From contig OZ242000.1 in NCBI GenBank assembly GCA_965204615.1, forward strand, positions 1,473,803 to 1,537,802: 64,000 nt of DNA, read 5' to 3'. The first letter of the stretch is position 1. Each line of letters starts with the position of its first letter. The stretch is from Acidimicrobiia bacterium. Its GTDB lineage: Bacteria; Actinomycetota; Acidimicrobiia; Spongiisociales; ZC4RG35. Position numbers and translations under genes: made by a program. Shown here piece after piece: positions 12,301 to 59,200 of this stretch. The notes under the pieces are model-generated. The model searched no databases. It was not told the origin of the DNA and was given only the letters and a program-made list of their open reading frames with translations.

Positions 12301-13953
12301 TCAGGGAGTTTCGTCCTCTCCCTGCTCTTCCTCCGGCGCCGACGGATCCTCATCCTCGAGGTCTCCCATGACCTCGCTTCGGGGCAGAAGGGTGGCGATC
12401 AGCGATATCTCCTCCTCTCCCCGGAGGATGTTCAGGACCAGGCGATCGCCCGGCACGCGATGGCGGATACGCGCCGCCAAGTCGCTGATCCCCGTCACGG
12501 GACGGTCATCCACCGCCACGATCACATCCCCAATCATCACACCTGCCGACTCTGCACCGGAACCGGGAAAGACCTCCATGATCTCCACTCCCGCATCTCC
12601 CAGGGAGTCCCGCCCGCTGACTCCCAGGAAGGTGGTATGGACAGGCTCTCCCGCTATCAGAGCCTTCGCCACCCGGTACGCCACATCCATGGGGACTGCG
12701 AAACCCACTCCCTGGAATTCCACCGTCTCCAACGTGGTGGAGTCGGTGAAGATCGAGACGTTTATCCCGATCAGCCGGCCGTACCGATCCGCCAGTGCGC
12801 CACCCGAGTTGCCCGGATACAGCACTGCGTCACTCTGAACCAGGAGCTTCCCGTCAACAATCCGATCGGTGGCGCTGATCACTCCGGACGTGACCGACGA
12901 TTCCAAACCCCAGGGACTGCCCACCGCCACCACCAGTTGGCCTACCCGGGGCGGCTCGAAAGCGAGCTCCGCGGCAACCAGCCCGGAGCGGTCCACCCTC
13001 ACAACCGCTACATCGCTGTCGGGATCGGCCCCTACCACCTCGCCGGGCAGGCGGTCTCCGTTGGACAGCCGGACAGTCAAATCCGCCTCTCCGGCCACAA
13101 CGGTTTCCACCACATGGGCGGCGGTGAAGATGTATCCCCGGCTGTTGAAGATCACCCCGCTGCCGGCGCCCTGCTCGAAGATGTTTTCGCTGGTGATCTC
13201 CAGGTGGACAACCGACGGCACCAGCCGGTCGGCAACATCCGCCACCGGCTCGTCGGTAATCACCAGATCCGGTGGTGTCACCACCTCCGGGACAGGTTGA
13301 GCTTCCACCGCGGTGGTGGGCGGCGCGGTAGTGGCTGGAGGCGCGGTAGTCGTGGGGACCGCAGTGGTGGTGGGAACCGTCTCGGGGGTGGTTGCCACCG
13401 TTACCTGTTCGGAGACCGGGTCCTCTGCCACCGGAGCGGGAAAGAACAGACCGGCTGCGAACCCCGCCAGCAACAGGGCGGTTCCAGCCGCAGCCATCAT
13501 CTTCCATCCCATGCCCCGGAGGACGCTCCCCCTGGGGGAAGGGATGGACCGCTCGGATGACATGGATTCGACAATGCCGCCTTGACTCTCGACCCCGGAC
13601 GGGTCTGGTGGGAGATCGCGGTCCGCCAGGCCCTCGGTGGACACACCCTCCCGCTCCGGATCCTCCCGCTGTTCTGCCTGCTCAACCTCCTCCGGCCGCT
13701 CCGGCTGCTCAACCCCTTCCGGCTGCTCCGGCTGCTCAACCCCCTCTGGCTGCTCCGGCTGCTCAACCTCCTCCGGCTGCTCCGGCTGCTCAACCTCCTC
13801 CGGCTGCTCGGGCTGTTCTGGCTGCTCGACGTCCTCGTGAGCCAAAGGCACGCCTCCATCCGAGTCGCCATGAGGTGTTGCGGCATGATCTTTCCCCGGT
13901 CCACAGGACGCTTCCTGGGTGGAGGGCTCGGGTGGCAGGTTTTCCGTCATCAC
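12301..13953 (-). CDS. HtrA/DegP-family trypsin-like serine protease with a C-terminal PDZ domain (PepD-like) and an acidic N-terminal repeat region
   Basis: Catalytic triad context: TAAHVV (His), GDSDVAVV (Asp), GNSGGAL (Ser). A C-terminal PDZ domain (GVMIGDVIVAVDDRPV), a single TM, a TTAVPTTTAPPATTAPPTT linker, and N-terminal (EQPEQPEEV)n repeats complete the architecture. Confidence 0.85.
   Translation of the reverse strand: MMTENLPPEPSTQEASCGPGKDHAATPHGDSDGGVPLAHEDVEQPEQPEQPEEVEQPEQPEEVEQPEQPEGVEQPEQPEGVEQPERPEEVEQAEQREDPEREGVSTEGLADRDLPPDPSGVESQGGIVESMSSERSIPSPRGSVLRGMGWKMMAAAGTALLLAGFAAGLFFPAPVAEDPVSEQVTVATTPETVPTTTAVPTTTAPPATTAPPTTAVEAQPVPEVVTPPDLVITDEPVADVADRLVPSVVHLEITSENIFEQGAGSGVIFNSRGYIFTAAHVVETVVAGEADLTVRLSNGDRLPGEVVGADPDSDVAVVRVDRSGLVAAELAFEPPRVGQLVVAVGSPWGLESSVTSGVISATDRIVDGKLLVQSDAVLYPGNSGGALADRYGRLIGINVSIFTDSTTLETVEFQGVGFAVPMDVAYRVAKALIAGEPVHTTFLGVSGRDSLGDAGVEIMEVFPGSGAESAGVMIGDVIVAVDDRPVTGISDLAARIRHRVPGDRLVLNILRGEEEISLIATLLPRSEVMGDLEDEDPSAPEEEQGEDETP
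13676..13842. repeat. About 6 tandem copies of a 27-nt unit (ccggctgctccggctgctcaacctcct) encoding (EEVEQPEQP)n in the HtrA N-terminus
   Basis: Near-identical 27-nt tandem units were read directly in the sequence. Confidence 0.7.
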
Positions 13954-14009
13954 AGGTTTGTTATAACCGATTTTATGGTAAAGCCGTCATAAAGGCGCCC
14001 ACGCCCCAC

Positions 14010-15179
14010 TCAATCGTGGGGATTGACGTCGGGCGGGACAGCACCCGCCACGACCTCGCGGGAAGGAATCCACACCACCATCACCGTCCCCCCTTCCTGC
14101 CTGTCCAGGGAAGCCAGCGAGCCTCCGTGCAACTCCGCCAGGTGCCGGCCAATGGCCAGCCCGAGCCCGCCTCCCGCAGGGGCATCGCCGGACAGCAGCG
14201 CCGGATCAAGACCCGGACCCCGATCCGCCACCGTCATCCACGCCCATCCGTCCCTCTCACCACAGGCGAGCTCGAGAAGGCTGCCCGGAGGGGAGGCCGC
14301 GATGGCGTTGTCGAGAAGGTTCTCCAGGATTCGGACCAGGGCAAGCCCGTCTCCGGACACGGGCGTGGGACGGGTGTCCACCACCACCCGCATGTCCCTC
14401 TCCTCGGCCAGGGGCTCCGTCGCCTGAGCGGTGGAGACCAGAAGATCGGCCAGATCCACCTCTGAGATCTTGGCGAAACCGACTTCCAACCGGGCCGCCT
14501 CGAGCAGGCGGTCAATCATCTCCGACATCCTTCGAGCGGCGCGGGAGACCACTACTCCCGTCTCCCGCCAGTCGTCCACGGTGGAATCAGGGTCGGCCAG
14601 GCTCACCTCCAGATTGGACCGGATCACCGCCAGGGGATTGCGAAGATCATGGGAGGTGGAGGCCAGGAATTGCTGTTGCAGTCGAAACGAACCGCTCAGC
14701 CTGTCAAGCATGGCGTCGAAGGTGCCGGCCAAACGGGTTAGTTCGTCGTCGGGTCCCGAGAGGTTGATCCGCCGGGTCAGATCCTGCGCCTGAATGTTCT
14801 CGGCCACTTCTCTGATCTTGTTGATGGGACGCAGGGTGCGGCCGGCAAGAAACCAACCCATCAGCAGGCTGAGCAGGAACATCCAGAACAACCCCCACAG
14901 AATGGGGCCGGTGATGTCCTCGAGGATCCGCTCCCGGAGTACGGTCTCCACCGTCTGGAACTGCCTCATCTCCAACTGGGGGATTATGAAGCGCACTCCT
15001 CCCCTGATGACCGTCTCCCCCGGTCTCAGCACCAGGCCCATCACTCGCTCGTGTCGGAGGCCATGACGGATGACGAAGAAGATGGTTGTCACCGCGGCTG
15101 CACCCAGCGCGAACACCACCACCGAGGAGAGCACCGAGAGACGGAAACGGATGGAGTGGAGTACCGAAGGGAGCTTCAT
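14010..15179 (-). CDS. Two-component sensor histidine kinase (HAMP-HisKA-HATPase; MprB-like)
   Basis: Two N-terminal TMs, a HisKA H-box STSHDLRNPLA, and N/G1/G2 boxes (DRGPGL, GGLGLAI) are present. The ATG at 15179 overlaps the response-regulator stop (ATGA). Confidence 0.85.
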   Translation of the reverse strand: MKLPSVLHSIRFRLSVLSSVVVFALGAAAVTTIFFVIRHGLRHERVMGLVLRPGETVIRGGVRFIIPQLEMRQFQTVETVLRERILEDITGPILWGLFWMFLLSLLMGWFLAGRTLRPINKIREVAENIQAQDLTRRINLSGPDDELTRLAGTFDAMLDRLSGSFRLQQQFLASTSHDLRNPLAVIRSNLEVSLADPDSTVDDWRETGVVVSRAARRMSEMIDRLLEAARLEVGFAKISEVDLADLLVSTAQATEPLAEERDMRVVVDTRPTPVSGDGLALVRILENLLDNAIAASPPGSLLELACGERDGWAWMTVADRGPGLDPALLSGDAPAGGGLGLAIGRHLAELHGGSLASLDRQEGGTVMVVWIPSREVVAGAVPPDVNPHD

Positions 15180-15874
15180 AGGGTCCTCATGGGGACATCT
15201 TCTTCCAACAGCACGTACCCCCTTCCCGGCACGGTGTTGATTTTTGCCGGCTCCCCCAGCTTCTTGCGCAGGTTGGAGAGGGTCATCCGCACGGTGTTGG
15301 TGAAGGGATCGGCGGCCTCGTCCCACACGTGTTCCAGGAGCGTCTCCTGGGAGAGCACCTGACCTGCCCGGATCATCAGGTATTCCAGCAGCGAGAATTC
15401 CTTGGCCGTCAGCCGGAGGGGCCGGCCGCTGCGGGTAGCCTCGAAGCGGGCGGTGTCCAGTCGCAGATCCCCCACCTCCAGGATGGGACTCGTGTCCTCT
15501 TCTCGACGCAGGACCGCGCGGACCCTGGCTTGGAGTTCCGCGAAAGCGAACGGCTTCACCAGGTAGTCATCCGCCCCCGCGTCAAGACCTTCCACCCGGT
15601 CCTCCACTGCGTCGCGCGCGGTGAGCATCAACACTCGGGGAGCCCGTCTCTCGAAGGTGTCGAGCGACCCGTCCACCAGGCTCCGGCAGAGATCCACCCC
15701 CCTGCCATCCGGCATGTTCCAATCGAGGATCACCAGGTCGTAGCCGGCAGAGACCAGTCGCAGAGATGCCTCTTCCAGGGTGTAAGCCACATCCACCGCG
15801 TAACGGTTGCGCCGCAGCCCCCTGGCGATGGCATTGGCCAGATCGGCTTCGTCCTCCACGACCAGCAGTCTCAT
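15176..15874 (-). CDS. OmpR-family response regulator (MprA-like)
   Basis: Receiver domain MRLLVVEDE...DLVILDWNMPDG...DDYLVKPF plus a winged-helix trans_reg_C (TVPGRGYVL). ATG at 15874. Confidence 0.85.
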   Translation of the reverse strand: MRLLVVEDEADLANAIARGLRRNRYAVDVAYTLEEASLRLVSAGYDLVILDWNMPDGRGVDLCRSLVDGSLDTFERRAPRVLMLTARDAVEDRVEGLDAGADDYLVKPFAFAELQARVRAVLRREEDTSPILEVGDLRLDTARFEATRSGRPLRLTAKEFSLLEYLMIRAGQVLSQETLLEHVWDEAADPFTNTVRMTLSNLRKKLGEPAKINTVPGRGYVLLEEDVPMRTL

Positions 15875-15954
15875 AGTGGTGAAAATTACCCTTGCTGCGG
15901 AGAAATGCGATATGCCCGGGATTCGGCCCCGGCCCGGCGGGTAGCATCCTGGCC

Positions 15955-17121
15955 ATGTCAAGATTCCGAGGCGCCGCCGACCGGTCCCGCATCCGATCCC
16001 TCTTGGAGCAATTCGTCAGCATCCATTCGGTGAACCCCGCCCTGGACGGAGGACCGGGCGAGGCGGAGTTGTCCACTGCCCTCTTTGACTATCTGGAGGC
16101 GGCCGGGATGAATCCTCGTCGTCAGCCGGTCGCTCCCGGCGGGCGGGACAACATACTGGCCGAACTGGAGGGATCCCCCGGAGGGCCTCTGCTGATGTGG
16201 GAAGCCCATCTCGACACAGTGACACCCTCGGGTAAGGCCTGGCCTGAGGCGGTCGTGGAGGGAACGCGGGTGCATGGACGGGGAGCCTGTGACACCAAGG
16301 GTTCGCTGGTGGCGATGGTGGAGGCGTTGCACATGGTGGCAGACCTGGATCCCCGGGAAAGAACACCGATTCTCTTGGTGGGGGCGATAGATGAGGAGGT
16401 CTCCGGCGGCGGGGCGACTGCCCTCTGTGAGGCGAACCTCGGAATCGACATGGCGATCGTGGGGGAACCCACCGGGCTGGAGTTGGCCACCGCCCACAAG
16501 GGTGTCCTCCGTTTCGACATCGAGACGGTGGGATCCCCCTCCCACTCCTCCAAGCCGCATCTCGGTGTGAACGCTATCCATCACATGTCACGGGTGCTGG
16601 ACGCCCTGGAGAACAGGTACATCCCAACCCTCTCCGAGATCACCCATCCCCTGGTCGGCAACCCCACCATCTGCACCTCCCTGATCAGGGGAGGCACCGC
16701 CCTCAACATTGTCCCTGCCCAGTGCGTGATCAGCCTCGACCGCCGGGTTAACCCCGGCGAGAACTCCCAGGAGATACTGGAGGACATCGACGCATTGCTC
16801 GAGAGCCTCGCCGAGAGCGGGATCGAAGCGCGCCGCGGCGATACGCCTCTCGACATGGGGCCCTTGGACACCCCGGTGGATCATCCGCTTGTGAAGGTCC
16901 TCCGGACCGCTCGCAAATCGATCCTCGGCTCGCCGGGGGAACCGATCGGCGTTCCCTACGGAACCGACGCCAGTTGGTACGCGCCGGCCGGGATTCCCTG
17001 TGTCATCTTCGGTCCCGGCTCCATCGATCAGGCCCACTCCGACGAGGAGTGGGTGGAGATCGAGGACACCGCCCTGGCCGCCGAGATCATCGCCGAGACA
17101 GCGGTCTTGATGGCGGGGTAA
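15955..17121 (+). CDS. M20-family metallopeptidase (ArgE/DapE/succinyl-DAP desuccinylase-like)
   Basis: It carries the metal-binding residues (HLDTV, D in GACDTKG, the EE pair in IDEEVSGGG, C-terminal H) and the M20 dimerisation insert. ATG at 15955, divergent from the response regulator. Confidence 0.75.
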   Translation: MSRFRGAADRSRIRSLLEQFVSIHSVNPALDGGPGEAELSTALFDYLEAAGMNPRRQPVAPGGRDNILAELEGSPGGPLLMWEAHLDTVTPSGKAWPEAVVEGTRVHGRGACDTKGSLVAMVEALHMVADLDPRERTPILLVGAIDEEVSGGGATALCEANLGIDMAIVGEPTGLELATAHKGVLRFDIETVGSPSHSSKPHLGVNAIHHMSRVLDALENRYIPTLSEITHPLVGNPTICTSLIRGGTALNIVPAQCVISLDRRVNPGENSQEILEDIDALLESLAESGIEARRGDTPLDMGPLDTPVDHPLVKVLRTARKSILGSPGEPIGVPYGTDASWYAPAGIPCVIFGPGSIDQAHSDEEWVEIEDTALAAEIIAETAVLMAG

Positions 17122-17595: not shown

Positions 17596-18297
17596 GTGGT
17601 GATCCGTCCCCTCTACGCATTGACACTTCTCGTCTTACTGTTCGCCTCCTGTGCCGGAGAGGACCTTGATGCCGAGATGGACGCTGTCTCCGCGGTGCCT
17701 TCCACCGCCACCACCGCGACGGCGGGGACCACCTCCCCGGCGGCGGACCCCACAACCGCATCCGCTCAGAGTGCAGAACCGGTTACCACCATCTCCGCAT
17801 CGATCGAAGAGGACCCCGCCCCCACCTCAGTCACCACGACTGCTACCACCTCCGCGGCGAGCGAGAAGACGACCCCCTTCCAGATATCCGACGACGTGCC
17901 CGACCTGGAGATGTTCGACGTAGCCACCGGTGCCAGGGTGAGTCTGCGATCGGTGGTGAAAGGGGAGAAGCCGCTCATGTTCTGGTTCTGGTCCCCGTTC
18001 TGAGAGACGTGCCAGGAGGAAGCTCCGGCCATCGAGCAGTTCGCTCGGGAAAACGCTCACCGCCTCTCCGTGGTCGGGGTCGGCGCCATAGGAACTCTGG
18101 AGGTCGCCCAGGAGTTGGTGGCGTCCAAGGGTGTCACCTTCACCGCGTTGTGGAGTGACTCACGCGATGCCTGGGACCATTATGACATGGACAGCACCTC
18201 CGACTTTATGCTGCTGGACCGCTTCGGCGCCCGGCTCACCGAAGCGGCGCCCTACGAATCGGACCTGGTGGAGGAACTGCTGGACGAGTTGTTCTGA
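17596..18297 (+). CDS. Candidate selenoprotein: TlpA/ResA-like thioredoxin-fold lipoprotein (thiol:disulfide oxidoreductase) with an in-frame TGA (18001-18003) at the first position of the CxxC motif
   Basis: The ORFs 17596..18003 and 18070..18297 share one frame, separated only by TGA. The joined product reads ...LMFWFWSPF-U-ETCQEEAPAIEQFA..., aligning with the TlpA consensus FWASW-C-GPC-RAEAP. Lipobox LLFASC and a Thr-rich linker are present. GTG start. Confidence 0.6.
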
Positions 18298-18361
18298 TGT
18301 TCGGTCATCCGGCCCGAAGCGTAAGGCGTGACCAGGGTGGCATCCTCCTGCAGGTCCACCC

Positions 18362-19465
18362 ATGAAGAAACCTGACCGTATCCAACCCGGCGCCCGGAAA
18401 CGGGGAAGATATTCCCGTAGGTCGGCTGTGCCGCTGCTGCTGGTGGTGGTTTTGCTGGCGGCGGTCGCCACGGCGCCGGTGAGCGCCACCGATGGGTTCT
18501 CCGACGTGGACCCGGGTAACGTGCACGCACCGGCGGTCACGGCCTTGGCCGAGCGGGGAGTGTTGGCGGGCACCGAATGCGGAGACGGCCTGTTCTGCCC
18601 CCACGACCCGATCGAGCGGTCGGTGATGGCGGTGTGGCTGATCAGGGCGCTGGGCGCTAGCCCCGATGCCGACTCATCCCGCTTCGCCGATGTGGACGCC
18701 TCGCAGTGGTGGTCGCCCTTCGCCGAGGAACTGGCCGACCGTGGTATCACCAGGGGGTGTGCCACCGGTCCCCTCCGGTACTGTCCGGACAGTGCGGTCA
18801 CCCGCGCCCAGATGGCCAGCTTTCTGGTGCGGGCCTTCGACCTGGAAAGCGCCGGGACGGCCGGATTCGCAGACACCGGAGGTAGCGGTCACCGACAGGA
18901 CATCGACGCCCTAGCCGCGGCCGGTATCACCAGGGGGTGTGCCACCGGTCCCCTCCGGTACTGTCCGGACAGTGCGGTCACCCGCGCCCAGATGGCCACT
19001 TTCCTGCATCGGGCGCTGCTCCGACAGGAGCAGATGACTCGGATCAGCGACGACGTGCCCGATGTCGACCTAACCGACCTGGCCACCGGGGAGAGCGTCA
19101 ATCTGCGGTCCCTGCTGACTGGTGACAAAGCGGTATTGCTCTGGTTCTGGGCCGAGTGGTGACCGACGTGCCGGCGCCATGCGCCCGAAGTCGAGCAGTT
19201 CGCTCGAGAAAACACCGACCGAGTCACCGTCATCGGCATCAGCCCGGCAACCTGGGGGAGAGCCGACGCAGCCGAGCCCTTCGTGACCCGCTATGGCCTG
19301 ACCTTTGCCAATTTGTGGGATGGAACCAACGCCGCCTACCGACACTACGGCAGCCCGTACACCTCCGAATTCTGGTTGCTGGACCGCAACGGCGACCGGG
19401 TCGGCGACCGCGCGGTTTCTTTTTCAAACTCCAGGGCACAGAGAATGTTGAGCACCCTGGAGTAA
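18362..19465 (+). CDS. Candidate selenoprotein: SLH-domain-anchored TlpA/ResA-like thioredoxin-fold protein with an in-frame TGA (19160-19162) replacing the first Cys of CxxC
   Basis: The ORFs 18362..19162 and 19283..19465 share one frame. The joined product reads ...VLLWFWAEW-U-PTCRRHAPEVEQFA..., which is a paralog of the upstream gene. A signal peptide (..ATAPVSATDG) precedes SLH-like repeats (FADVDASQWWSPFAEELADRGITRGCATGPLRYCPDSAVTRAQMASFLVRAF, seen twice). Confidence 0.6.
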
Positions 19466-19839: not shown

Positions 19840-20840
19840 CGCCCCGATGCTCCTATGATGCTCCTATTTTTACAAATCGGCGTTTTTGGGTGGCGGGTGG
19901 GTGGTTAGCCAGTGGTGGTATCGGGTGGCGAGTTCGTGGTTATGGTTTTGGCTTCGTTCGAGTTGTGAGATGTGGGTTGGGTGGCTTTGGAGGGCTGTGG
20001 CGGCTTGGGTAAGGGTGATGCGGTGTTTTTGGCGTAGGCAGCGAAGAGCGGTGCCGTGGGGGGTTGAGCGAGGGTTGGTCAACAGGTAGTAGATCTCTCG
20101 GGCGATGTGGCGTTTCAGACAGCGAGTGATTTCCCGGCGGGTTTTTCCTTCCGCCCGGCGTTCTTCTACGTAGGCGTTGGTGCGTTGGTCGCAGCGGATG
20201 CGGGTGGTGGCGATGCGCCACAGTGTGGTTGGCTTGGCGGTTACCACCGCGGTTGAGGCGATGTCGGACGATACGTCCCGACGACGCCTGGACGGGGCTT
20301 GTGCCGCACAAAGCAGCAAACGACGCTTCCGTTCGCATGCGTTCGGGGTTGTCACCGGCTGTGATCAACAGGGTGGCGGCGGTGTCCGCGCCGACCCCGC
20401 GGGTGGCTAAGAGTGCCGGGTTGGCCCGTGCGCAGAGACCGCGGATCTGGGTGTTTAGTTCTTTGATCTCTGTGGTGAGTGTCTGATGTCGGCGGGCCAG
20501 GAGCCTCAGGGCCGTTTTGGCGTATCTGATGGTGGTGTGGTCTTTGCCTGGACGATAGGCGGCGCAGGCTTTCACCCGGGCTCTGGGGGACAGTCCCGCT
20601 AGTTGGTGTTTGACCTGGTCGGGAGCGGCAACAACCAAAGCGTGCAACTGGTTGATGGCCTGGGTGCGGGCCTTGACCGCCGAACGACGCGCCACCTGGA
20701 GCATACGGATAGCCTCGACTGGTCCGTCGCCGCTCTTGGGCAGCCCGGTGGCCTGCCCGTTGAGAACCGCCCGCGCCGCGGCTGTGGCATCAACCGTGTC
20801 GGTCTTACCCAAGCGGCGGCGGACGCGACCGACATGCGAC
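19840..20840 (-). mobile_element. Degenerate IS110-family insertion sequence remnant
   Basis: It contains the truncated, frameshifted transposase. Its 3' end carries a short tandem repeat gctcctatgat x2.5 (19845-19871), and a low-GC foreign gene lies adjacent. Confidence 0.5.
19870..20812 (-). pseudogene. IS110-family transposase remnant: the 5'-truncated DEDD domain is missing and there is a frameshift near 20355
   Basis: The product contains GKTDTVDATAAARAV, ..LLATRGVGADTAATLLITAGD.., SSGRIVRHRLNRGGNRQAN (Transposase_20 motifs). It continues in another frame (19870..20355: LWRIATTRIRCDQRTNAYVEERRAEGKTRREITRCLKRHIAREIYYLL). No VGIDVGK-type N-terminal domain exists upstream. Confidence 0.6.
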
Positions 20841-34941: not shown

Positions 34942-36021
34942 GTGGCGGGCACATACGGCGGGAAGAAGGCAGCTCCGTTGCCCCCGGGCACCGCCGACTT
35001 CTACAGCGACGGCAAGTCGATCCCTCCCCGCGAGATGCGGGAAGCCGTCCTGGACGCGCCCCTCGGCGACGAGCAAAAGGGCGAGGACCCGACAACGGCC
35101 AGTCTCACCGAACGGGTGGCCGAACTGCTCGGCAAGGAAGACGCCCTGTTCCTGCCCGCCGCCACGATGGCCAACGAGATCGCGGTGGCGCTGCACAGCC
35201 GTCCGGGGGATGAGATCATCTGTGAAAGGTCCTCGCACATCGTGAACTTCGAGTCCGGGGGTCCCGGTGTGCTGGCGGGAGTGCAAACACACATGCTGGA
35301 CGGCGAGAAGGGTATGTTCAGCCCCGAGCAGCTTGCCGCCGCCATCCGCCCCAAGGGCAACCTGTACATCCCCGAGACCGCGATGGTGGCCGTGGAGCAG
35401 ACCGCCAACATGGGCGGCGGAGCGGTGTGGCCTCTCGACCAAATGAGGGCTGTGGCGGCGGTGGCCGCCGAGGCCGGAGTCGCCACCCACCTGGATGGAG
35501 CGCGGCTGATGAACGCGGTCGTGAAGGCCGGCATATCGGCCAGTGACTACTCGGAAGGCTATGACTCCGTCACCTTCTGTTTCTCAAAGGGCCTCGGCAG
35601 TCCCTTCGGAGCGGCCCTGGCGGGATCCGGGGAGTTCATCCAACGCGCCTGGCGCCTCAGACAGCTCATCGGAGGAGGACTGAGACAGTCCGGATTCATG
35701 GCGGCCCTCTGCCTCTATGCCCTCGACCACTACGTGGATCGACTGGCGGACGATCATCGACGAGCCAGTGAGATCGCCTCGACGCTGGAAGGCCTGGAGT
35801 TGGTTGAAGACGTGCTGCCGGCAGACACCAACATCGTCATCTTCAACATTTCCCCACGGGGTCCCACTGCGGCCGAAGTGGTCGCCGAGTTGCTCCGGCG
35901 GGGCTTCGCGGTCGGCGCATTCGGCGAGAGGAGGATCCGAATAATCACCCACCTCGGAGTGGACCAGGACGACACCGAACGCCTGTGCGCAGCCCTGGAG
36001 ACCCTCCTCACTCCCCGCTGA
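34942..36021 (+). CDS. Low-specificity L-threonine aldolase family (beta-eliminating lyase, PLP-dependent), copy 1
   Basis: HLDGARLMNAV and the PLP-Lys motif CFSKGLGSPFG are present. GTG start with SD gaaggagg. Confidence 0.75.
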   Translation: MAGTYGGKKAAPLPPGTADFYSDGKSIPPREMREAVLDAPLGDEQKGEDPTTASLTERVAELLGKEDALFLPAATMANEIAVALHSRPGDEIICERSSHIVNFESGGPGVLAGVQTHMLDGEKGMFSPEQLAAAIRPKGNLYIPETAMVAVEQTANMGGGAVWPLDQMRAVAAVAAEAGVATHLDGARLMNAVVKAGISASDYSEGYDSVTFCFSKGLGSPFGAALAGSGEFIQRAWRLRQLIGGGLRQSGFMAALCLYALDHYVDRLADDHRRASEIASTLEGLELVEDVLPADTNIVIFNISPRGPTAAEVVAELLRRGFAVGAFGERRIRIITHLGVDQDDTERLCAALETLLTPR

Positions 36022-36206
36022 CGGGCGGGGATCAGAGCATGCTCTCTGCATCCAGCCACCTACGGTGCGCCACCCGGGCCTGTGTGGTGGGAGCTTCTGC
36101 TGCTATCCACGGCGTGATCATGTCAGGGCCGGGCCGGGAATTCTCGACACGGGTAGGGTGTTTTTGCAAGACTGTGCGGCAAGCCAAGGCGAAGAAGGAG
36201 TAGGAG

Positions 36207-37286
36207 ATGGCGGGTACATACGGAGGAAAGAAAGCGAGTCCGGTGCCGCCGGGGACTGCCGACTTCTTCAGCGACACCAAGTCGCTCCCTTCCCGGCAGA
36301 TGCGTCTGGCCGCCGTCGAGGCGCCACTCGGCGATGAGCAAAAGGGTGAGGACCCGACAACCACCGAACTGCTGACGCGGGTCTCGGAGATGCTCGGCAA
36401 GGAAGACGCCCTGTTCATGCCCTCGGCAACCATGGCCAACGAGATAGCGGTCGCCGTTCATTGCCGTCCCGGCGACGAGATGATAAGCGAGAGGTCCTCG
36501 CACCTGGTCAACTTCGAAGCCGGAGGCCCTGCCTTGCTGGCGGGAGTGCAGACACATATGCTGGACGGCACCAACGGCATATTCGGTCCCGAGCAGGTTG
36601 CCGCCGCTATTCGCCCCAAGGGCAACCTCTATATCCCCGAGACCGCTCTGGTGGCTGTGGAACAAACCGCCAACATGGGAGGCGGCTCGGTTTGGCCGCT
36701 GGAACGACTCAGGGGTGTGGCCGCAGTGGCTGCCGAGGCCGGGGTCGCCACGCACATGGATGGCGCCCGGCTGCTCAACGCGGTGGTCAAGACGGGGATC
36801 TCAGCCAGGGACTACGCGCACGGATACGATTCCGTCACCATCTGCTTCACCAAGGGTCTCGGCTGTCCCTTCGGCGCCCTGCTGGTGGGATCCGAAGAAT
36901 TCATTCAGCGAGCCTGGCGCTTCCGACAACTTCTCGGAGGAGGTTTGCGGCAGTCCGGGTTCATGGCGGCTGCGTGCCTCTATGCCCTCGACCACAACGT
37001 GGAGCGACTGGCGGACGATCATCGACGAGCGGGCCGGATCGCCTCAACGCTCAGGGACCTGGAGTTGGTGGAGAAGGTCCTCCCGGCTGAAACCAACATC
37101 GTGATCTTCGACATAGACCAGGACGGCCCCACCGCAGCCGAACTGGTCAGCCAATTGCTCTCACGGGGCATCCTGGTCGGCGCATTCGGCGAGAGGCGGG
37201 TACGGATCGTGACTCACATCGGGGTGGATCAAAGTGACACCGAACGCCTGTGCGATGAACTGAAGACACTGCTGGGCGCCGGCTGA
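36207..37286 (+). CDS. Low-specificity L-threonine aldolase family, copy 2 (tandem paralog)
   Basis: About 80% identical to copy 1 at the protein level (MAGTYGGKKA.PVPPGTADF...). It has its own SD and leader resembling that of copy 1. Confidence 0.75.
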   Translation: MAGTYGGKKASPVPPGTADFFSDTKSLPSRQMRLAAVEAPLGDEQKGEDPTTTELLTRVSEMLGKEDALFMPSATMANEIAVAVHCRPGDEMISERSSHLVNFEAGGPALLAGVQTHMLDGTNGIFGPEQVAAAIRPKGNLYIPETALVAVEQTANMGGGSVWPLERLRGVAAVAAEAGVATHMDGARLLNAVVKTGISARDYAHGYDSVTICFTKGLGCPFGALLVGSEEFIQRAWRFRQLLGGGLRQSGFMAAACLYALDHNVERLADDHRRAGRIASTLRDLELVEKVLPAETNIVIFDIDQDGPTAAELVSQLLSRGILVGAFGERRVRIVTHIGVDQSDTERLCDELKTLLGAG

Positions 37287-41365: not shown

Positions 41366-42976
41366 TTAGCGGTAGTAGCCGGGGACCCACTCGCGGTCGG
41401 TTCTGTAGTAGCCGGGGATGGTCCGAGTCTTACCCAGCCAATACCCGTGATGCCACTTTCTTACTTCCTCTTGTGGTTCAATCCACACTCGGATGGTCGT
41501 GTAGGAATCTTCGACCCACACGATTTCGTTGTCGTAGTATCCCGGGATGGTCCGAGGTTCGCCGCAGACCTCCCCCATGACCGGCGGAATCCACACCTTG
41601 TAGTCGGGGTACTTCGGATGGGAGTAGTAATAACCGGGCTTGACGACCTCCTGGGCGCACACACCAGGGACCTCACGTGCCTCCACCCATTTCTGGACGG
41701 ACTTGTGGTGGCCAGGCACGAACGACTGCCGCTCCTGCCAGCCTCCCTCAACCGCAGGTGTGATGATTTCCCAATGACCATCAACGAAGTGCTCGTAGTG
41801 CTCGGTCCGGGGTGGCACCCACGTCCGTGTGGTGCGCCAGTAGCCATCTACCCACTCTCGCTCGGGCTCGGAGGACGAGGCAGTGGTCGTGGACGTATCC
41901 TCCGCGGCAGCATCATCGTCTGCCGCGGCTTGCGTCTGGGTTTCGGCAGGTGTGAAACCACCCCCACCTCCGCTGCTACTGGTGGCGACCGCCTGGGAGA
42001 TACGGCGGTCACTGCCGGAGTCGACCGACTTTTGTCGGGTGCCCGCCACGTCCTCTGCCACCTCGGTGGACTTGGACACCCGACGGTCCGCCACCCGCTC
42101 ATTGGTATCAGCGGACTGGCTGGTGCCACGGACATTCGACCTGGAGGGGTTGCCAGACCCGCCACTGGAGTAGCTGACCTGACGACGAGGCGGGTCGAAC
42201 TTGCCGTCCGCGCGGTCCTCTTCATCTATGATGTCGCCGATAGACCTCTCGCCGTCGCCTTCATCACCCTCATCCTCTTCGTCATCGGTGAAAGGCGAGG
42301 TGATCCAGTCGATGATCTTCTCCTTCAGCTCCTCCTCGCCCTGTTCCCGAGCTTCGTCAACCTCCTTACAGAGGTCGCACAAGGAGTTGACAATGGCGGG
42401 AGTTACAGCGTCGGCCGCTCCGTCAAGCGCTCCCCGAGTAGCGGGTCCTCGCCGAGTACCGGGCGGGTTCTCCCCAATAGCCTTCGCGACGTTCTTAGCG
42501 ACACCAGCGATGGTTTTACCAGCCGTCTGTATCCAGTTGTCACCATCGTCGTCACCCTCATCATCGTCGGGAGGCGTGTAACCGCCCTTCTCCTCCGTGT
42601 CCTTGTCCTGCGCCTCACGATCTGCGTGAGTGGACCGCCACTGACGATCCGCCGGGTTCATGTCCTCCGCATCGTCCCGGGTGCGCTGGTTCTGAGGATG
42701 GTCCGGCTTGTCGTTGCCGTTCTTGTCGGTGCGGCTGTCCGGATGATTTGCCGGGTGCCCAGGGCTGTTGTCCTGGCTCACCTCCTCATCGTCTTCATCG
42801 CTCGAACTGCTGCTGGACGAGTCGCCGGAGTCCTGGTTGGAACTCTGGCTGGAGCTGCTGCCGCTGTTGCCCTGCTCACCGGGATGACCCGGCGGTCGGG
42901 CCAGCACGGGGACAGCAGTAGTCAGTGCCAGGATGACCGCAATCGCCATCACCAGCAGTCGTCTAAAAGGCGACAT
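41366..42976 (-). CDS. Secreted, highly acidic Ser/Asp/Glu-rich protein with a C-terminal Trp/Tyr-rich repeat region; function unknown
   Basis: Signal peptide MSPFRRLLVMAIAVILALTTAVPVLA, SD GGAG upstream, long disordered acidic stretches, and C-terminal repeats of the type (W/Y)xxGYW / PGYY (..WHHGYWLGKTRTIPGYYRTDREWVPGYYR). Confidence 0.6.
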   Translation of the reverse strand: MSPFRRLLVMAIAVILALTTAVPVLARPPGHPGEQGNSGSSSSQSSNQDSGDSSSSSSSDEDDEEVSQDNSPGHPANHPDSRTDKNGNDKPDHPQNQRTRDDAEDMNPADRQWRSTHADREAQDKDTEEKGGYTPPDDDEGDDDGDNWIQTAGKTIAGVAKNVAKAIGENPPGTRRGPATRGALDGAADAVTPAIVNSLCDLCKEVDEAREQGEEELKEKIIDWITSPFTDDEEDEGDEGDGERSIGDIIDEEDRADGKFDPPRRQVSYSSGGSGNPSRSNVRGTSQSADTNERVADRRVSKSTEVAEDVAGTRQKSVDSGSDRRISQAVATSSSGGGGGFTPAETQTQAAADDDAAAEDTSTTTASSSEPEREWVDGYWRTTRTWVPPRTEHYEHFVDGHWEIITPAVEGGWQERQSFVPGHHKSVQKWVEAREVPGVCAQEVVKPGYYYSHPKYPDYKVWIPPVMGEVCGEPRTIPGYYDNEIVWVEDSYTTIRVWIEPQEEVRKWHHGYWLGKTRTIPGYYRTDREWVPGYYR

Positions 42977-43056
42977 ATTTGGCTCCTTTCAATACTCGAA
43001 GTCGGCGCAGCTTCACTGCCTGGTCATCGTGATCGTCCACAGCGGCTCTCCCTTCC

Positions 43057-43902
43057 TCACTCCGACCCTTTCGTTGGGTCAGGGAAATCTGATAGGTGGT
43101 TATGGCGTCCGTGTTCGTTGAGGAGACGGTTCATGCTGTCCTGCAACTGATCGATCTGTTCCGGCGTATCCGGGATGAGGGTGGCGTTGTCTGCCGTGGC
43201 CATCCGGGCAGGGTTCGGGTACTGGTCCGCCGTTTCGACTGGATCGGGAGCTTTCCCTAGGTCAGCTTTTTGGGGATATTTGATGTTGTTGCTGTTGGGA
43301 TTCCGGGCTGTCACGGTGATTGCAGCTGTTTCTTCGGGGATCCCGGTGACCGTCAGGGTGGAACTGTTGTGATTGGCCATGTGGTCTGGAGCTGTCATGT
43401 CACGGGTGACCAGTTCTCCGCATGGGCTGCTTCGCCGCTGTCTCCCGGTCGCTGGCCGTGGGGGTCGCTGCGCATACGGCTTTGGGACAGGTCTTTTGTC
43501 CTGTTCTCGTGGGTGAGCGGAGGCCATGTCGGGATTCTCTATGGTGTGGGCGATGTTGACCTTGGCGGAGGTAACACCGGTAGCGGTGACGGTTTGCGCG
43601 GTGTTAGTGCCCGAGGCGGGAAAGTTCAGGGGGTCCTGGCTCCCGGTGGCTTTATCGGGGTCCGGGGCGAGGGGGATGGCCCGGGTCATGCCGGGTCTCC
43701 CGAGGGGGTTCAGACTACGAGAATTAGGGGGCGGAGCGGGTAGGGCTGCCCTTTTGCAGGAGCGAAGGGCGGTGGTCAGGGCCGAAATCTCATTGGACAG
43801 ATTCAAGTGGCGTTTCCTGCCGTCCTTCTGTGGAGGAGCCTCTGGGGCATCACGGCTTCTCGACTGCAGGGAGTCGGCCTCCGGCAGCTTTATTCGCGCC
43901 AT
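43057..43902 (-). CDS. Hypothetical low-complexity (Pro/Asn/Thr/Ala-rich) protein downstream of an AT-rich segment
   Basis: Its composition is not typical of high-GC antisense shadow ORFs (N, K, I present). It is preceded on the minus strand by the AT-rich block at about 44100-44200. No motif was recognised. Confidence 0.35.
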   Translation of the reverse strand: MARIKLPEADSLQSRSRDAPEAPPQKDGRKRHLNLSNEISALTTALRSCKRAALPAPPPNSRSLNPLGRPGMTRAIPLAPDPDKATGSQDPLNFPASGTNTAQTVTATGVTSAKVNIAHTIENPDMASAHPREQDKRPVPKPYAQRPPRPATGRQRRSSPCGELVTRDMTAPDHMANHNSSTLTVTGIPEETAAITVTARNPNSNNIKYPQKADLGKAPDPVETADQYPNPARMATADNATLIPDTPEQIDQLQDSMNRLLNEHGRHNHLSDFPDPTKGSE

Positions 43903-44767
43903 TGTCTGTTTCCCTATTGCTCCGCTTTGTTCTCGGCCGGACGCTCACCGCCCCAGGTCGCCTTGGTCTCCAGGGTCTTTTGAAGGCAAGACCCCGTCCA
44001 CCGGGGGACTTCTCATCTGCTTGGGTCGTCGATGTCACACCGAGCCTTGCGCGGTGTTGGCGAGCATTCCGGGAGAATCGGCGGGGCTGCGTTCCCTTCC
44101 TGTTTCCTACCATTTGTTACACTACTGTATGGAGAACGTATTAATAGTGAAATCTAGTATATGATTAACGTATGTTCATGGTTGGGCATGCAACATGTTC
44201 TTCTCACAGCGGAAGTCCAGTCTCTCAGTTCCGCCGACTCAGCCGGGTATCTGCGGGCTTGTCAAGCCGACGGGACACCGGCGGAAAACAGTCCAGTCCC
44301 CGGGTCAGTGCATCGCCACCACAGAGATTCGGACGATTTGAACCGCTCGTGGAAGGGGTCTGTTACCCGCTACACGGCTCCAAGATGTCGTAGGCCCGAG
44401 CCAGTGCCAGTGGTATGTCTGTCAAACAATCGAGTGGGTGGCGCCCTGCGGATTACTCCTTTTTGAACCGGCCGCCGGTTGTTCTCGAACACCCCTCCCA
44501 TTTAGCCGACAGCACCCTATGGTGCCATCAATCCAAGTAGCGGGCGTGGAATTCATAACAGCAGGGACCATGCAGACCGAAAGATGTGCCCCGCCTATTC
44601 AGCGGCAGTCCGCCTCTTGCTTGACTCCGACCTGCCCCACCGCAGACACAGGACGGCCAAAGCTCGCCACCCAAAACAGCTCGCACGGGTTTCTCACCCC
44701 TTACCCTGCCTGTCTGTGATGCTCGGGGCTCACCGCCCGCCACGGCGGGTAGGGCTATAGCCCTCTG

Positions 44768-45833
44768 TCACCCAGATGACCTGGGGGTGTTGCCACTCGC
44801 CGCGTCAGGGCTCTGTTGCAGCCAGAGGAGGGCGTGCTCCGCATTCCAATGGAACTGTGGCGAGGCGAACCACGACAAAGCGTTTCCTCGGGAGGTCTTA
44901 GCGATCAGCCACACCTGGTCAATGCTGGAGAATCGAACAGAGGAAAGGTCAGGGTGGGGGAGTCGCGCGGTTGGCCCGAAGGCTTCCTCGAGTTGCCCCG
45001 CCGCGTCGAGTCCGTCCAGTGGTACAGCAAGCCACTTTTCGCCGGAGATATTCGCCATCTGACCACGACGTTCCTTCTTGTCGATAGCCCGTTGCCCCGC
45101 TGAAACAAGATCCTCCACCTCGCCTTCAATGAAGGCCTTCCGAGCCGCCCCCACACCAACATGAATGCCTCCGTACCTGTCCCCGGTTGGCACAAGAGGT
45201 CCTATCACGCCGACCCGGCGGGGCAACAGATCATCGATCCACAAATCCACAATGTCCGGTGGGACCGGGGTCCAGAGCGGCTTGTGCCCGTTCCGTTATC
45301 GCTTGGGGAGATCCGCCCACAGCCTCGGCCTGCGCGAAAACGGGCACCATTGCCGACACTATTTCTTTGAGCGTGCGGGATGAACTTCGCTTCTCGATGC
45401 AGAGGTCTGAGACGATCACCCTCCACTCGTAAGACAACGCAGGGAACCGTTTAGGCCACATCTTTCACGCCGCCGCATGTAGACGGTTGGCGGCATCGAG
45501 AGTAGCCATGACAATCTCCACGGTGACCCGCACCCCATCGCCCAGCGTTAGTCTCAGATCGGGCGTTCGGACATTAGCAACCTGACTCTCCCGCAGCCAC
45601 TCATAGTCGTTCACATCTTCCACCGCACAGATCGCTTCAAACGCCGCCTGCTCATCAGCCCATCGCCTATGTTCCCCCACGACCCTGTGCTCAATCCACT
45701 TCGAGTCGCAAATGTTGCCAACCCGGCTGCCCTTTGAACAACCGGATTTCAAATTACCGGAGTGGCGCCGATCACGAGAGCCGGTTTCTGCAAGTTGTCT
45801 CGGTAGTCCAAGGGATAACAAACCACCAAGCAT
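44768..45833 (-). pseudogene. Frameshifted gene remnant split across three minus-strand frames (45833..45465, 45461..45231, 45250..44768), family unrecognised
   Basis: Three consecutive protein-like ORF pieces on the same strand are each interrupted by a frame change. They lie in a lower-GC region flanked by palindromes (AGGGCTATAGCCCT at 44751-44764). Confidence 0.3.
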
Positions 45834-46076
45834 TTCTCAGAGGTTCAGTCGACCTCGGAAATGGGCCAACCAGGAACTTGAAAGCCTGCCAAGACCAGCC
45901 AATCCCCCTTTTGGCGCAAACCTCGGACCCGTCGCGGAAACCGCATCACCCAGCAGAACCCCATCCCAACCTCCCACAGTCAGAATTCCCTGCCGAAACC
46001 ACGGATAATTCCTGCCAACACCAGTGTCAGGCGGGGCTTCTGACCTGCGAAAGCATCACTTCGCGCCAGCCCCGTC

Positions 46077-53011: not shown

Positions 53012-53131
53012 AACCCCTATATCCTCGCGGTTGTCATAGGAATCGTACCTTCCCCGCCATCCTGCATTTTGTAAGTGTTGCGCCCATCACCCTTTCACCG
53101 CGCTGAAGCCCAGGACCGCAGGGACCGGTGG

Positions 53132-56274: not shown

Positions 56275-59200
56275 TTATCGGGTTGCGATGGCTCGGGTCA
56301 GGAGGCTGGCCATCTGGGCTCTGGTAGTGGCTTCCTGGGGGCAGAATCGGGGCGGGTCGGTGGCGCATCCCAGGGTGATTCGGGCGGCTGCCAGGGCGTC
56401 GATGTCGGCGGCGTGGTAGTTGTGGGAGGTGTCTTCGAAACCGGCGGCCTCGGCTGTGGCTAACTCGAACGCTCTTACCAGGAAGCTGGCCATCTGGGCG
56501 CGGGTGACAGGCCTGTCGGGGCAGTACTCCAAGGGCTCGGTTGAGCATCCCAGGGTGATTCCGAGTTGGGCGAGGCGTTCGACGTGACCGACCCACCAGC
56601 GGTCAGCACCCACATCCGCGAATCGAGGCTCGGTTGGTTGGGCGGGGTCCTGTCCGTCGATTACCCGCACTAGCCATACCGCCATTTCCCAGCGTCTGAT
56701 CGGTTCTTGGGGGCATAGCTGTCCGGTGCGGCAGCCGGTGCGGTTCAGGATTCCTCTTGATGCAAGGTCTGTTACCGCAACGATGTGGTGTGTTCCTGCT
56801 TGGTCGAGATCGGAGAATCCGCCGGCCGGTTCGTCGCCCGTAGGCTCTCCGCCTCCGCCGCCTCCTCCGCCGCCGCTTCCGCCTCCTCCGCCGCCGCCTC
56901 CTCCGCCGCCGCCTCCGGTGGTGGGGGTGCTGGTTGGGGTGGTGACGGTGATGGCGGTGGTGGCGGTGCGGTTGTTGTAGTTGGCGTCGCTTGAGGTTGC
57001 GGTGGCGGTGATGGTGGCGGCGCCGACCGTCAGAGTGCGGACGCGGACGGTCTTGGGGGAGCGCCAGTCGGTGGTGGTAAAGGCGAGCGTCGCAGGCGCG
57101 ACGGTGGCATGCTCGGCGGGCTCGACGGCGAGGGCGACGGTGACTGCGGCTGCGGGCTGGGTGTTGAGGCGCACGGTGTAGGTGTCGGATTGGCCTCGGC
57201 CGATCGACAGAGCGGTTTTGCTGAGGGTCAGGCCGGGGCTGTCGATGTCGCGGATGGCGATGTCGAGGCACGGCGCGACTTCATACACCCACTGCAGCGT
57301 GAGCGAGGGCGTGGCGGTGGCGGACAGCCGCAGGGTGCGGTCGCCGTCCACGGCGTCGTCGCGTGGCAAAATCACCACCCCCGACGCGCTGGTCTGTCCG
57401 GCGGGAATGGTGAACGCTGCAGGCAAGGTGTAGTCGGCTGCGGTGGCGGCGTTGCTACCCGCCCCGCCGGGACACGCCGTGGTGGTCGCCAAGGCGATCG
57501 TGACGCCGCCGCTGTCCGCCGGCTTGTCCAAGGTGGCGGTGATTCGGAGCTGTGAGCCTTCCTGGCCCTGCCCGCCCGAGACCACCCCCGATCCAGCGAC
57601 GGCGATGCTGAAGCTGGTCGGGACGTCCTCGCTGTCGATTGTTACCACCGCCTGCAAGCTGCCGCCGGGTCTGCGGGAGTACAGGTCGCCGGTGGTGCGC
57701 GCCGGGCTTCGGGCCGGCGCGAAGCCCAAGCGGATGGTCTTGTCGGGCTCGACAGCGTCGTCGTCGAGAATGGTGATGGTCAGGTTCTTGGTGGTGGCGG
57801 TGTCTGTCGCGGTGGCGGCGAAGGTGACCGTCTTGGTCGCGATGGTGAAGTCCTGCCCCTCGGTCGCGGTGCTGTCGCCCAGCACTCTGGCAGTGAATGT
57901 GACCGGCTCGGCGGGCAGCGCGCTGATAGTGACCGGCACGCTCAGGGTGCCGCCGCTCACGTCCTCGTCGACGTCGGCGGTGTAGGCGTTGGTGGGCGCG
58001 GTGGTGGTGCCCGACGCGGCGAACGCGACCCACGCCTCGCCGCCGTCGTCGTCGGCAAACGACACGGTCACCTTGTCCGCCCCTGTCTTCTTCGGCGTCC
58101 ACCCCGACGCGGAGACGGTGACGGTGTGGGTGACGATGGCGGCGGACGGGGTGCTGTCATCCGCGATCGCCACCGACAGCGTGGCGCGCCGCTCCCCGAC
58201 GGGCACGGTGAGGGTCGACGGCGTGGTGGAGCCGATCATGTGGGTGACCGTCATCGACAACCCACCTGTGGGGGCGAGCGCGTCCAGGGTCACCTCCAGT
58301 TCCACGGCGGTACCCTCTTCGCCGGTGGCGGTCGACAGGCCGGTGTCTTTGGCAACCAGGGTGAACGTCATGGCGGGCTCAAGCACCTTCGCGGTCACGT
58401 TCGGGACCGACAGGCCTTCGTAGGTGGTGTCGCTGCTGGTGACGGTGTGGCTGATGGTGGCGGTGCCGTCGGCGACGCCGGTCACGGTCACATCCTGGGG
58501 CTGCGACCAGTTCGTCGAGGTGAACGTCAAAGCCCCCGACACGGTCGCCGTCGCCGAGCTGCTGGTCGCCGGAGTGACGGTCACGTCCGCTGTCGGCGCG
58601 GCGTTGAGCTGGATCATGTAGGAGACCTCCTCGTCCTCGACCATCTCCACCCGGGTCCTCGACAGCGTCGTGCCGGCGCCGGAATCGAGGATCTGCGCAT
58701 ACAGCCCGCCGAGCTGCGTCAGCCCCGACAACGCGGCGGTCAAAGACCGCGACTTGCGCTGGGCCCTGGCCTGGATCAGCAGCACCTCCTGGGGCTCGGT
58801 GAGCGTGTCGGAGACGAAACTGACCGTGCCCGTCGCCGTGGTCTGCCCCTCGGGGATCGTGAACGGCGCGAACCGCACGTCGGCCGCCCCGGCGCGGCCC
58901 GACCCACCGACGCCGAAGGTCCGACGCGCCGGGGTGACCCGCCACCCCCCGGGCCCCGCGGGGATGTCGGACACCGCGGTCAACGTGGCCTGCGTGCCCT
59001 CGTACACCCGGTAATAGCGGCCCGCGAACTCAGACGCCGAGATCGACAACGTCACCTTCGACACCGCGTCCTCGCTTTTCACCGTCACCCGCGACCTCGC
59101 CCCCGAAGCGTGCCGGTCGTAGTGATCGCCCAGATCGTCCACCGTGGTGTCAGCGGCGACGATGCGCAGCTCGATAGTCTCGTCGTCCTCCTCGACGATG

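Follow-up and report, generated by a model that had tools for sequence, protein, structure and literature searches.

The two genes described here have as their closest relatives of known structure DsbE (Mpt53, Rv2878c; PDB 1LU4) and DsbF (Rv1677; PDB 3IOS) of Mycobacterium tuberculosis, the solved structures to which their sequences match best. Both mycobacterial proteins are located outside the cytoplasm, DsbF as a lipoprotein. A functional precedent for the repair of oxidised proteins at the cell surface is provided by Streptococcus pneumoniae Etrx1 and Etrx2 (PDB 4HQZ), surface-tethered thioredoxin-fold lipoproteins of a Gram-positive bacterium. Selenoproteins that combine a TlpA-like or Prx-like thioredoxin fold with a UxxC active site (U denoting selenocysteine, Sec) have been predicted since 2004-2005 and are catalogued (PMC13188914, a 2026 review table; PMC1088965). 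Here we analyse a 64,000-nucleotide stretch of DNA from an Acidimicrobiia bacterium (contig OZ242000.1, positions 1,473,803 to 1,537,802; hereafter the window), whose forward strand carries two tandem DsbE/ResA-like genes, gene 1 and gene 2, each split by an in-frame TGA at the codon for the first cysteine of a CxxC motif. An initial annotation, made from the sequence alone, had put both forward as selenoprotein candidates, and our analysis supports that proposal: the two are very probably genuine Sec-encoding genes. The case is strong because the UGA is conserved at the first Cys position (in 90 of 90 homologues), a stem-loop resembling a selenocysteine insertion sequence (SECIS) and showing covariation lies downstream of it, Cys-containing homologues exist, and TGA has not been reassigned.

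Gene 1, a candidate lipoprotein-type selenoprotein, occupies 17596..18297 (+ strand; 233 codons including Sec136, true stop TGA at 18295-18297) and has the same layout in its homologues on contigs L001 and L002. Gene 2, a candidate SLH-anchored selenoprotein, follows at 18362..19465 (+; 367 codons including Sec267, true stop TAA). The coordinates of the two splitting TGAs given in the initial annotation were confirmed, as was the read-through. Gene 1 reads ...PLMFWFWSPF-U-ETCQEEAPAIEQFAREN..., with the UGA at 18001..18003 as the first position of a U-E-T-C motif and 97 codons past it, while gene 2 reads ...AVLLWFWAEW-U-PTCRRHAPEVEQFAREN..., with the UGA at 19160..19162 opening a U-P-T-C motif and 100 codons past it. 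On both flanks of each TGA the GC content at third codon positions (GC3) is 0.76-0.88, the coding composition of this 64.7% GC sequence. Versions of the two genes with Cys in place of the stop matched the Pfam families AhpC-TSA, Redoxin and Thioredoxin, and in gene 2 only, SLH. The predicted thioredoxin-fold domains contain the UGA in both cases, spanning 17878..18294 in gene 1 (+; AhpC-TSA 1.5e-9 and Redoxin 1.6e-8, residues 97-209) and 19034..19462 in gene 2 (+; AhpC-TSA 2.2e-14). In alignments with solved structures the TGA falls on the first Cys of LWFWTPWCPFC in Mpt53 (1LU4, E=5e-14) and of LWFWAPWCPTC in DsbF (3IOS, E=5.6e-12), and the same correspondence is seen with the Cys-form homologues described below. 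The proposed placement of the TGA at the first CxxC cysteine is thereby upheld, and so is the thioredoxin-fold character of the downstream halves, which show coding composition, conserved residues and Pfam matches. At the DNA level the two genes are about 55-60% identical over most of the domain, and 22 of 23 bases are common to both in TCGAGCAGTTCGCTCG-GAAAAC.

To survey the family, the gene 2 domain was searched against 5.8 billion proteins, which returned six homologues with 73-100% identity, all of them ending in ...WFWA[ED]W, immediately before the TGA position. In the DNA of L001 (a 3.14-Mb contig of an Acidimicrobiia metagenome-assembled genome, MAG) and of L002, the tandem gene pair is present with TGA at both sites and intact downstream frames. 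A genome scan with one genome per species and two patterns, of which the 80 best-matching stretches were kept, yielded 79 loci; these come nearly all from Acidimicrobiia MAGs, many of them named sponge symbionts (Ca. Spongiisociaceae, Ca. Spongiisocius, Aldehydirespirator and sponge-bin names). All 90 distinct motif sequences from these loci, down to about 40% protein identity, have TGA at the codon of the first Cys and a frame that stays open for 94-113 codons past it, and Cys at +3 and Pro at +8 from the TGA are conserved in 100% of them. The initial annotation had raised the prospect that close homologues carry TGC or TGT at this codon; none of the 80 best-matching stretches does. Two copies occur in 21 of the 79 loci, and the TGA-containing gene family is expanded rather than single-copy. 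Three or more copies, often in tandem, were noted in many Acidimicrobiia genomes (L025; L055; L030/L031/L039/L058; OZ219922.1, with L012, L057 and L059; OZ253564.1, with L018 and L022).

These data bear directly on the possibility that the genes are pseudogenes, or products of sequencing or assembly error, in which the TGA is a functionless premature stop. An IS110 transposase remnant just downstream of the pair, and the truncation at the TGA codon of nearly every database protein of the family, would fit such a reading, but the same TGA codon recurs in 90 sequences whose 94-113-codon downstream frames keep coding composition and conserved residues. Moreover, the C-terminal open reading frame (ORF) of gene 1 is found on 15 independently assembled contigs, from both long-read and short-read data, and five fetched contigs that are 95-99.96% identical to the window all carry the identical TGA split. 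Because the same split stands on 15 independent contigs, sequencing error, which had been judged unlikely from the outset, and recent pseudogenisation are excluded, and this explanation is effectively refuted.

It is likewise very unlikely that each locus makes two polypeptides, a surface protein truncated ahead of the active site and a C-terminal fragment whose translation begins at a GTG or ATG within the gene. Gene callers do predict downstream ORFs of 75 aa and 60-78 aa, as such an arrangement would require; yet the stretch of 20-40 codons that separates the TGA from the first possible internal start, and that would then go untranslated, is the most conserved in the family (the invariant Cys +3 and Pro +8, and EQFAR). 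Neither half makes up a complete thioredoxin fold, since the UGA falls between strand β1 and helix α1, and the C-terminal fragment would lack an export signal.

Cys-containing relatives were sought by an exhaustive HMMER search with the 100 residues past the gene 2 TGA as query. Among the 54 relatives found, about two thirds look, from their length and match position, like C-terminal fragments of 59-131 aa, the signature of split Sec forms. Full-length Cys forms are represented by P0009, which combines SLH modules with a thioredoxin fold (...WFWAPW-C-PDC...), and by the lipoprotein-like P0015, P0016 and P0019 (...WFWAPH-C-xxC...). Among the matches listed, only two clusters of SLH-type relatives are full length; of those with 240-290 aa that were aligned, at least 15 end at the active site, and about 20 others agree with these in length and in the part of the query covered. 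P0009 is encoded at L087:95-2531, where a Sec form (TGA, both downstream hairpins, minimum free energy (MFE) of 60 nt -29.2 kcal/mol) is directly followed by this Cys paralogue, in which the codon is TGC, hairpin 1 is gone, AKFAE replaces EQFAR and the MFE is -14.2 kcal/mol. Identity between P0009 and gene 2 is 50% upstream of the UGA and 42% downstream, and the L087 tandem is a natural Sec/Cys pair in one genome. A genome-wide reassignment of UGA to sense was considered and rejected because TGA is the commonest true stop in the window, ending 18 of 36 confident genes, and also ends 62 of the 90 family members, gene 1 included.

The initial annotation had pointed to the region just past each TGA as the place for a SECIS, and conserved, covarying hairpins with frozen synonymous sites are indeed found there. 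Two hairpins follow each UGA (positions are numbered in nucleotides from the U of UGA; all are on the + strand). Hairpin 1 was identified by folding at 18011..18029 (+11 to +29) in gene 1, where the sequence varies between homologues with the pairing kept, and at 19173..19185 (GGCGC-CAU-GCGCC) in gene 2, where the L001 orthologue carries a compensatory change (GGCGC/GCGCC in the window vs GGGGC/GCCCC in L001). Its pair 16:24 is GC in 27 homologues, AU in 24 and GU in 12. Hairpin 2, the putative SelB-binding apical stem-loop, lies at 18032..18048 (UCGAGC-AGUUC-GCUCGG) in gene 1 and at 19191..19207 (UCGAGC-AGUUC-GCUCGA) in gene 2, and is backed by folding, by an RNAalifold consensus and by codon conservation. 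With 90 sequences RNAalifold returned a single consensus hairpin, formed by columns 32-37 and 43-48. The pairs G34-C46 and C37-G43 are invariant, A35-U45 and G36-C44 are kept in 89-90 of the 90, and pair 33:47 is CG in 78, UA in 11 and UG in 1, with none broken. The switch from C-G to U-A at 33:47 tracks amino-acid changes from V or I to L and from R to Q; as these changes deliver the switch, RNA pairing overrides protein sequence. The loop reads (A/G)GUU(C/U), with G39, U40 and U41 invariant, and SelB recognises a G-U feature in the SECIS loop.

Codon usage across hairpin 2 points in the same direction. Synonymous sites are frozen at Glu +11 (GAG 88/88), Gln +12 (CAG 79/79) and Ala +14 (GCT 89/89, whereas in the rest of these genes only about 15% of Ala codons are GCT), and the third-position entropy at codons +11, +12 and +14 is close to 0, vs 1.2-1.7 bits at typical codons. 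Against a stability null of 100 amino-acid-preserving codon resamplings per sequence, hairpin 1 had a mean z of -1.8 and hairpin 2 one of -2.55; at hairpin 2, 79% of sequences were more stable than at least 95% of their resampled versions. For hairpin 1 of gene 1, z was -2.56 vs the synonymous-codon null. Structure counts also exceeded those of shuffled and slid controls. Across 1.7 Mb (the window and the related loci) the hairpin 2 motif occurs 119 times, each time exactly 32 nt past an in-frame TGA, and one extra degenerate match looks like chance. Support for the structure is comparative: plain shuffles of the two window sequences only were not significant (z about -0.8 to -2). Hairpin 1 is omitted from the RNAalifold consensus of the 90 sequences and is supported by per-sequence folding against the synonymous-codon null; a fixed-register model of it is imperfect, with 72.6% of positions pairing in one register and 60.4% in the other. 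Rfam holds no bacterial SECIS model, hence no family match was possible. The bSECISearch criterion is reportedly a stem-loop with a small, G-containing apical loop at a spacing of 16-37 nt; the distance from the UGA to the hairpin 2 loop is 34 nt, and the hairpin at +32 to +48, with its covariation and frozen synonymous sites, appears from its sequence to be such an element.

Some bias was also noted immediately around the recoded codon. The preceding codon is TTC (17998-18000) in gene 1 and TGG (19157-19159) in gene 2; where the residue before Sec is His, it is encoded by CAT in 26 of 27 homologues, CAC dominating elsewhere (31/33 at codon +19). The base 5' of the UGA is U in 45 of 90 sequences, and the base 3' of it is C in 57, G in 30, A in 3 and U in none. 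These preferences may reflect a context effect on recoding or termination.

The machinery for Sec insertion was looked for in the window and the related loci. ARAGORN and an Rfam scan at gathering thresholds found no tRNA and no Rfam family in the 64 kb, tRNA-Sec included, and ARAGORN found ordinary tRNAs only in all 79 related loci. No sel gene was among the 40 Pfam-annotated ORFs of the window, and tblastn of the window and all loci, with probe sequences for the SelA, SelB and SelD proteins of E. coli, hit only two TypA/BipA-type GTPases, which were rejected as SelB. The statement in the initial annotation that selA, selB, selC and selD do not occur in the window is thus borne out by these searches. 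Elsewhere in the class, all 84 complete Actinomarina genomes have selA, selC, selD and a divergent selB (bioRxiv 10.64898/2026.04.03.716425). SelA and SelB are enriched in symbiont bins from the sponge Aplysina aerophoba (PMC5649159), and the Acidimicrobium-like sponge bin76 has both SelA and SelB (Slaby 2017, Table S4; PMC5649159). The Sec trait therefore occurs in the Acidimicrobiia clade, in Actinomarina and in sponge bin76, which lends indirect support to the selenoprotein reading. Bins 18 and 98 of that study were considered as possible equivalents of the APA_bin_18 and APA_bin_98 MAGs among our loci and are not the same. The literature searched on Spongiisocius and Aldehydirespirator contained nothing on selenium, and the element goes unmentioned in the main text of a comparative study of 350 genomes of sponge Actinobacteriota.

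Several points weigh against the assignment of gene 1 and gene 2 as selenoprotein genes. The claim rests on sequence comparison; a search confined to the window and 1.7 Mb of related loci turned up no selA, selB, selD or tRNA-Sec gene; and in a second Acidimicrobiia-like sponge bin, bin134, neither SelA nor SelB is annotated (PMC5649159, Table S4). The 90 sequences are related, so that counts among them are not independent events, and EQFA, which is encoded by the hairpin itself, was part of one of the two scan patterns, because of which distant Cys forms are under-sampled. As for the RNA, the 34-nt spacing is at the long end of the range said to hold for known bacterial SECIS elements, and hairpin 1 occupies the place of an E. 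coli-type SECIS without having the conserved GU loop, so that either hairpin may be the one bound by SelB, hairpin 2 being the putative site.

The lack of Sec machinery in the sequences searched, bin134 and the atypical spacing and two-hairpin layout would also fit a read-through of the UGA without Sec, either by structure-stimulated insertion of Cys, Trp or Arg by a near-cognate tRNA or by some unknown form of recoding in a cell that has no Sec machinery. We consider this improbable. Recoding affects the catalytic nucleophile, a position at which no residue but Cys or Sec would be functional, and if Cys were the product the retention of TGA in 90 of 90 sequences would make no sense, given that Cys forms evolve freely and then lose the hairpins. 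The loop of hairpin 2 keeps the invariant G-U expected for SelB recognition, and selABCD are present in other members of the class, with SelA and SelB in bin76. Taken with the evidence above, insertion of Sec is the preferred reading of both genes.

The N-terminal regions of the two candidate selenoprotein genes predict different modes of surface attachment, one paralogue being a lipoprotein and the other SLH-anchored, in agreement with the initial annotation. In gene 1 a signal peptide with a lipobox-like LLFAS-C motif (17596..17652, +; Cys19 codon 17650-17652), recognised by eye in the translation, is followed by a Thr/Ala/Pro/Ser-rich linker that extends from after 17652 to about 17877 (+; also by eye), and the L001 orthologue has a canonical VAAC lipobox and then a tether of about 75 residues rich in Thr, Ala, Pro and Ser. 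In gene 2 a signal peptide (...AAVATAPVSA/TDG; 18362..18487, +; by eye) precedes SLH modules, the presumed cell-wall anchor, at 18491..19006 (+; Pfam SLH 1.1e-12). Both products are accordingly predicted to be extracytoplasmic, gene 1 through its lipobox-like LLFAS-C19 and gene 2 through its signal peptide and SLH modules. Within the SLH region of gene 2 there is a 111-nt direct repeat (18724-18834 and 18904-19014; 86% identical, with a nearly exact core of about 75 nt), whose 180-nt spacing equals one SLH module; on the short-read contig L085 (protein P0001) exactly 60 aa are absent, either through a repeat-mediated deletion polymorphism or through assembly collapse.

A structural view was obtained from an AlphaFold2 model of the Cys paralogue P0009 (mean predicted local distance difference test score, pLDDT, 77.9), compared by Foldseek. 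Its three-module SLH domain matches that of Bacillus anthracis Sap, which binds a pyruvylated cell-wall polymer, with template modelling (TM) scores of 0.82-0.85, and its C-terminal domain matches DsbE, ResA, DsbF, CcmG and pneumococcal Etrx2 (TM 0.7-0.8). In the model a strand at 249-254 is followed by C259 and C262 at the N-terminus of a helix spanning 260-275, which suggests a thioredoxin fold with the C/UxxC motif at the start of helix α1 after strand β1. The near-universal cis-Pro of TlpA/ResA/DsbE-like folds, by contrast, appears from the alignment and the model to be largely replaced. In the column aligned to it (Q-P-A in Mpt53 and DsbF), 80 of 90 sequences have Ser and 10 have Pro, and the nearest Cys forms also have Ser. 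The motif is [TN]-S-x-F-W-L-L-D (...STSDF... at 18190-18215 in gene 1 and ...YTSEF... at 19355-19380 in gene 2), and in the model of P0009 the corresponding S327 directly precedes the central β-strand 328-332.

How does this family compare with the described systems? With Mpt53 and DsbF it has in common the actinobacterial LWFWxPW-C-Px-C context and a fold close to that of the P0009 model (TM 0.75-0.81); these two proteins differ in having Cys instead of Sec, in keeping the cis-Pro Q-P-A where Ser prevails here, and in having neither an SLH anchor nor a long low-complexity tether. Bacillus subtilis ResA, E. coli CcmG and Bradyrhizobium TlpA adopt the same fold (TM about 0.8) but use Cys and keep the cis-Pro. 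Membership in the cytochrome-maturation reductases was rejected, as scores against the NCBIfam models stay far below their cutoffs (ResA 29-40 bits vs 170, TlpA 18-22 vs 230, DsbE 21-26 vs 123); among the 40 Pfam-annotated ORFs of the window there is no resBC, ccm, ccdA, CcdA, DsbD, VKOR or cytochrome-maturation partner. The pneumococcal Etrx proteins are structural matches of distant sequence, which use Cys and have MsrAB2 and CcdA as neighbouring partners, neither of which is present here. The thioredoxin-fold selenoprotein family NF041054 (ResA-like WAxxUGC), with Sec in its active-site motif, matches gene 2 weakly, and membership was rejected because the score is 26.4 bits, where the cutoff is 300, and because the proteins analysed here have W-[AS]-x-x-U-x-x-C in place of the WAxxUGC motif.

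The catalogued UxxC families resemble gene 1 and gene 2 in fold class, in Sec as the first residue of U-x-x-C and in a bacterial SECIS within the ORF, a likeness drawn from their published descriptions. The gene 1/2 family is thus a new clade of a known kind of selenoprotein, and the finding leaves the general knowledge of selenoprotein biology unchanged. The published UxxC lists (PMC13188914, PMC1088965) make no mention of Acidimicrobiia, sponge symbionts, SLH or lipoprotein anchoring, or tandem paralogues, and three features appear undescribed in the literature searched: the distribution in Acidimicrobiia sponge symbionts with tandem or multiple copies, the lipoprotein and SLH anchoring, and the near-exclusive use of Sec.

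Based on these comparisons, the favoured mechanism would be as follows. A structured element within the coding sequence would direct Sec insertion at the UGA, codon 136 of gene 1 and 267 of gene 2, after which about 100 codons follow. SelB carrying Sec-tRNA(Sec) would bind hairpin 2 through its G-U-containing loop, and hairpin 1 (+11 to +29) may serve as a structural spacer or base. The products would be exported, that of gene 1 as a lipoprotein on a long Thr/Ala/Pro-rich tether and that of gene 2 held on the cell wall by three SLH modules. By homology, the U-x-x-C site would carry out thiol-disulfide (selenenylsulfide) exchange with exported proteins at the surface, and general selenium chemistry suggests that Sec in place of the nucleophilic Cys should lower the pKa and speed the exchange. 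As to the reaction, we lean slightly towards an oxidase or isomerase, by analogy with M. tuberculosis DsbE/DsbF; a surface reductase like ResA or pneumococcal Etrx is credible though less probable, and a role in defence against peroxide or other oxidants seems unlikely.

A bolder and rather doubtful proposal is that the genes form a distinct, almost obligately Sec-dependent redox system of the cell surface, expanded in sponge-symbiotic Acidimicrobiia. It is prompted by the tandem or multiple copies, the lipid or SLH tether, the Ser in place of cis-Pro and the two-part SECIS with its far hairpin (+32 to +48). Were it true, substrates would be handled in an altered way, for example to defend the symbiont surface against oxidants from the host, and the geometry of SelB on the mRNA might differ from the E. 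coli model.

The family is mis-annotated across the databases searched, where nearly every entry is a fragment ending at the active site. Because of these fragments, a surface redox enzyme present in several copies, and the dependence on selenium that it implies, escape surveys of sponge-symbiont Actinobacteria. The 90-sequence alignment provides a clean bacterial SECIS, supported by covariation, in a lineage for which the literature searched describes no such element; it could seed a covariance model with which to look for further selenoproteins in these genomes. Surface selenoenzymes in an aerobic, host-associated actinobacterium would also make a tractable case for comparing Sec with Cys in extracytoplasmic disulfide chemistry, for which the L087 pair offers a natural comparison.

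Upstream of gene 1 lie, in order, an HtrA-like protease gene (Trypsin_2 and PDZ; 12301-13953, -), a histidine kinase gene (HAMP/HisKA; 14010-15326, -), an OmpR-type response regulator gene (15176-15961, -) and an M20 peptidase gene (15892-17121, +), all assigned by Pfam. The protease, kinase and regulator set (12301-16033, -) just upstream of the pair resembles an envelope-stress module, and a two-component system also adjoins the selenoprotein pair in L001; the neighbourhood is compatible with a role in envelope protein-quality control, which we offer as a suggestion. Directly downstream of gene 2 is the IS110/IS116-family transposase remnant (19870-20812, -), identified by a partial DEDD domain in Pfam; its overlapping ORFs suggest a frameshift, and the corresponding site of the related contig L083 is occupied by an intact copy of 302 aa.

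Elsewhere in the window, a scan for other ORFs split around TGA gave too much noise in this high-GC sequence for further selenoprotein candidates to be picked out. The presence of Pup ligase and PafC-type genes confirms an actinobacterial origin. In the region 42000-46000 the GC content drops to 0.585-0.614, compared with about 0.65 outside it, and confident ORFs are few; the DNA there may be of foreign origin or non-coding. At 34942-37286 a tandem pair of paralogous genes for beta-eliminating lyases (359 aa each) lies beside an oligopeptide ABC transporter cluster. Finally, a 2064-aa ORF with Calx-beta and cadherin-like domains (56275-62469, -; GC3 0.89), probably a giant adhesin-like surface protein, adjoins a class A penicillin-binding protein gene with PASTA domains at 53075-56098.

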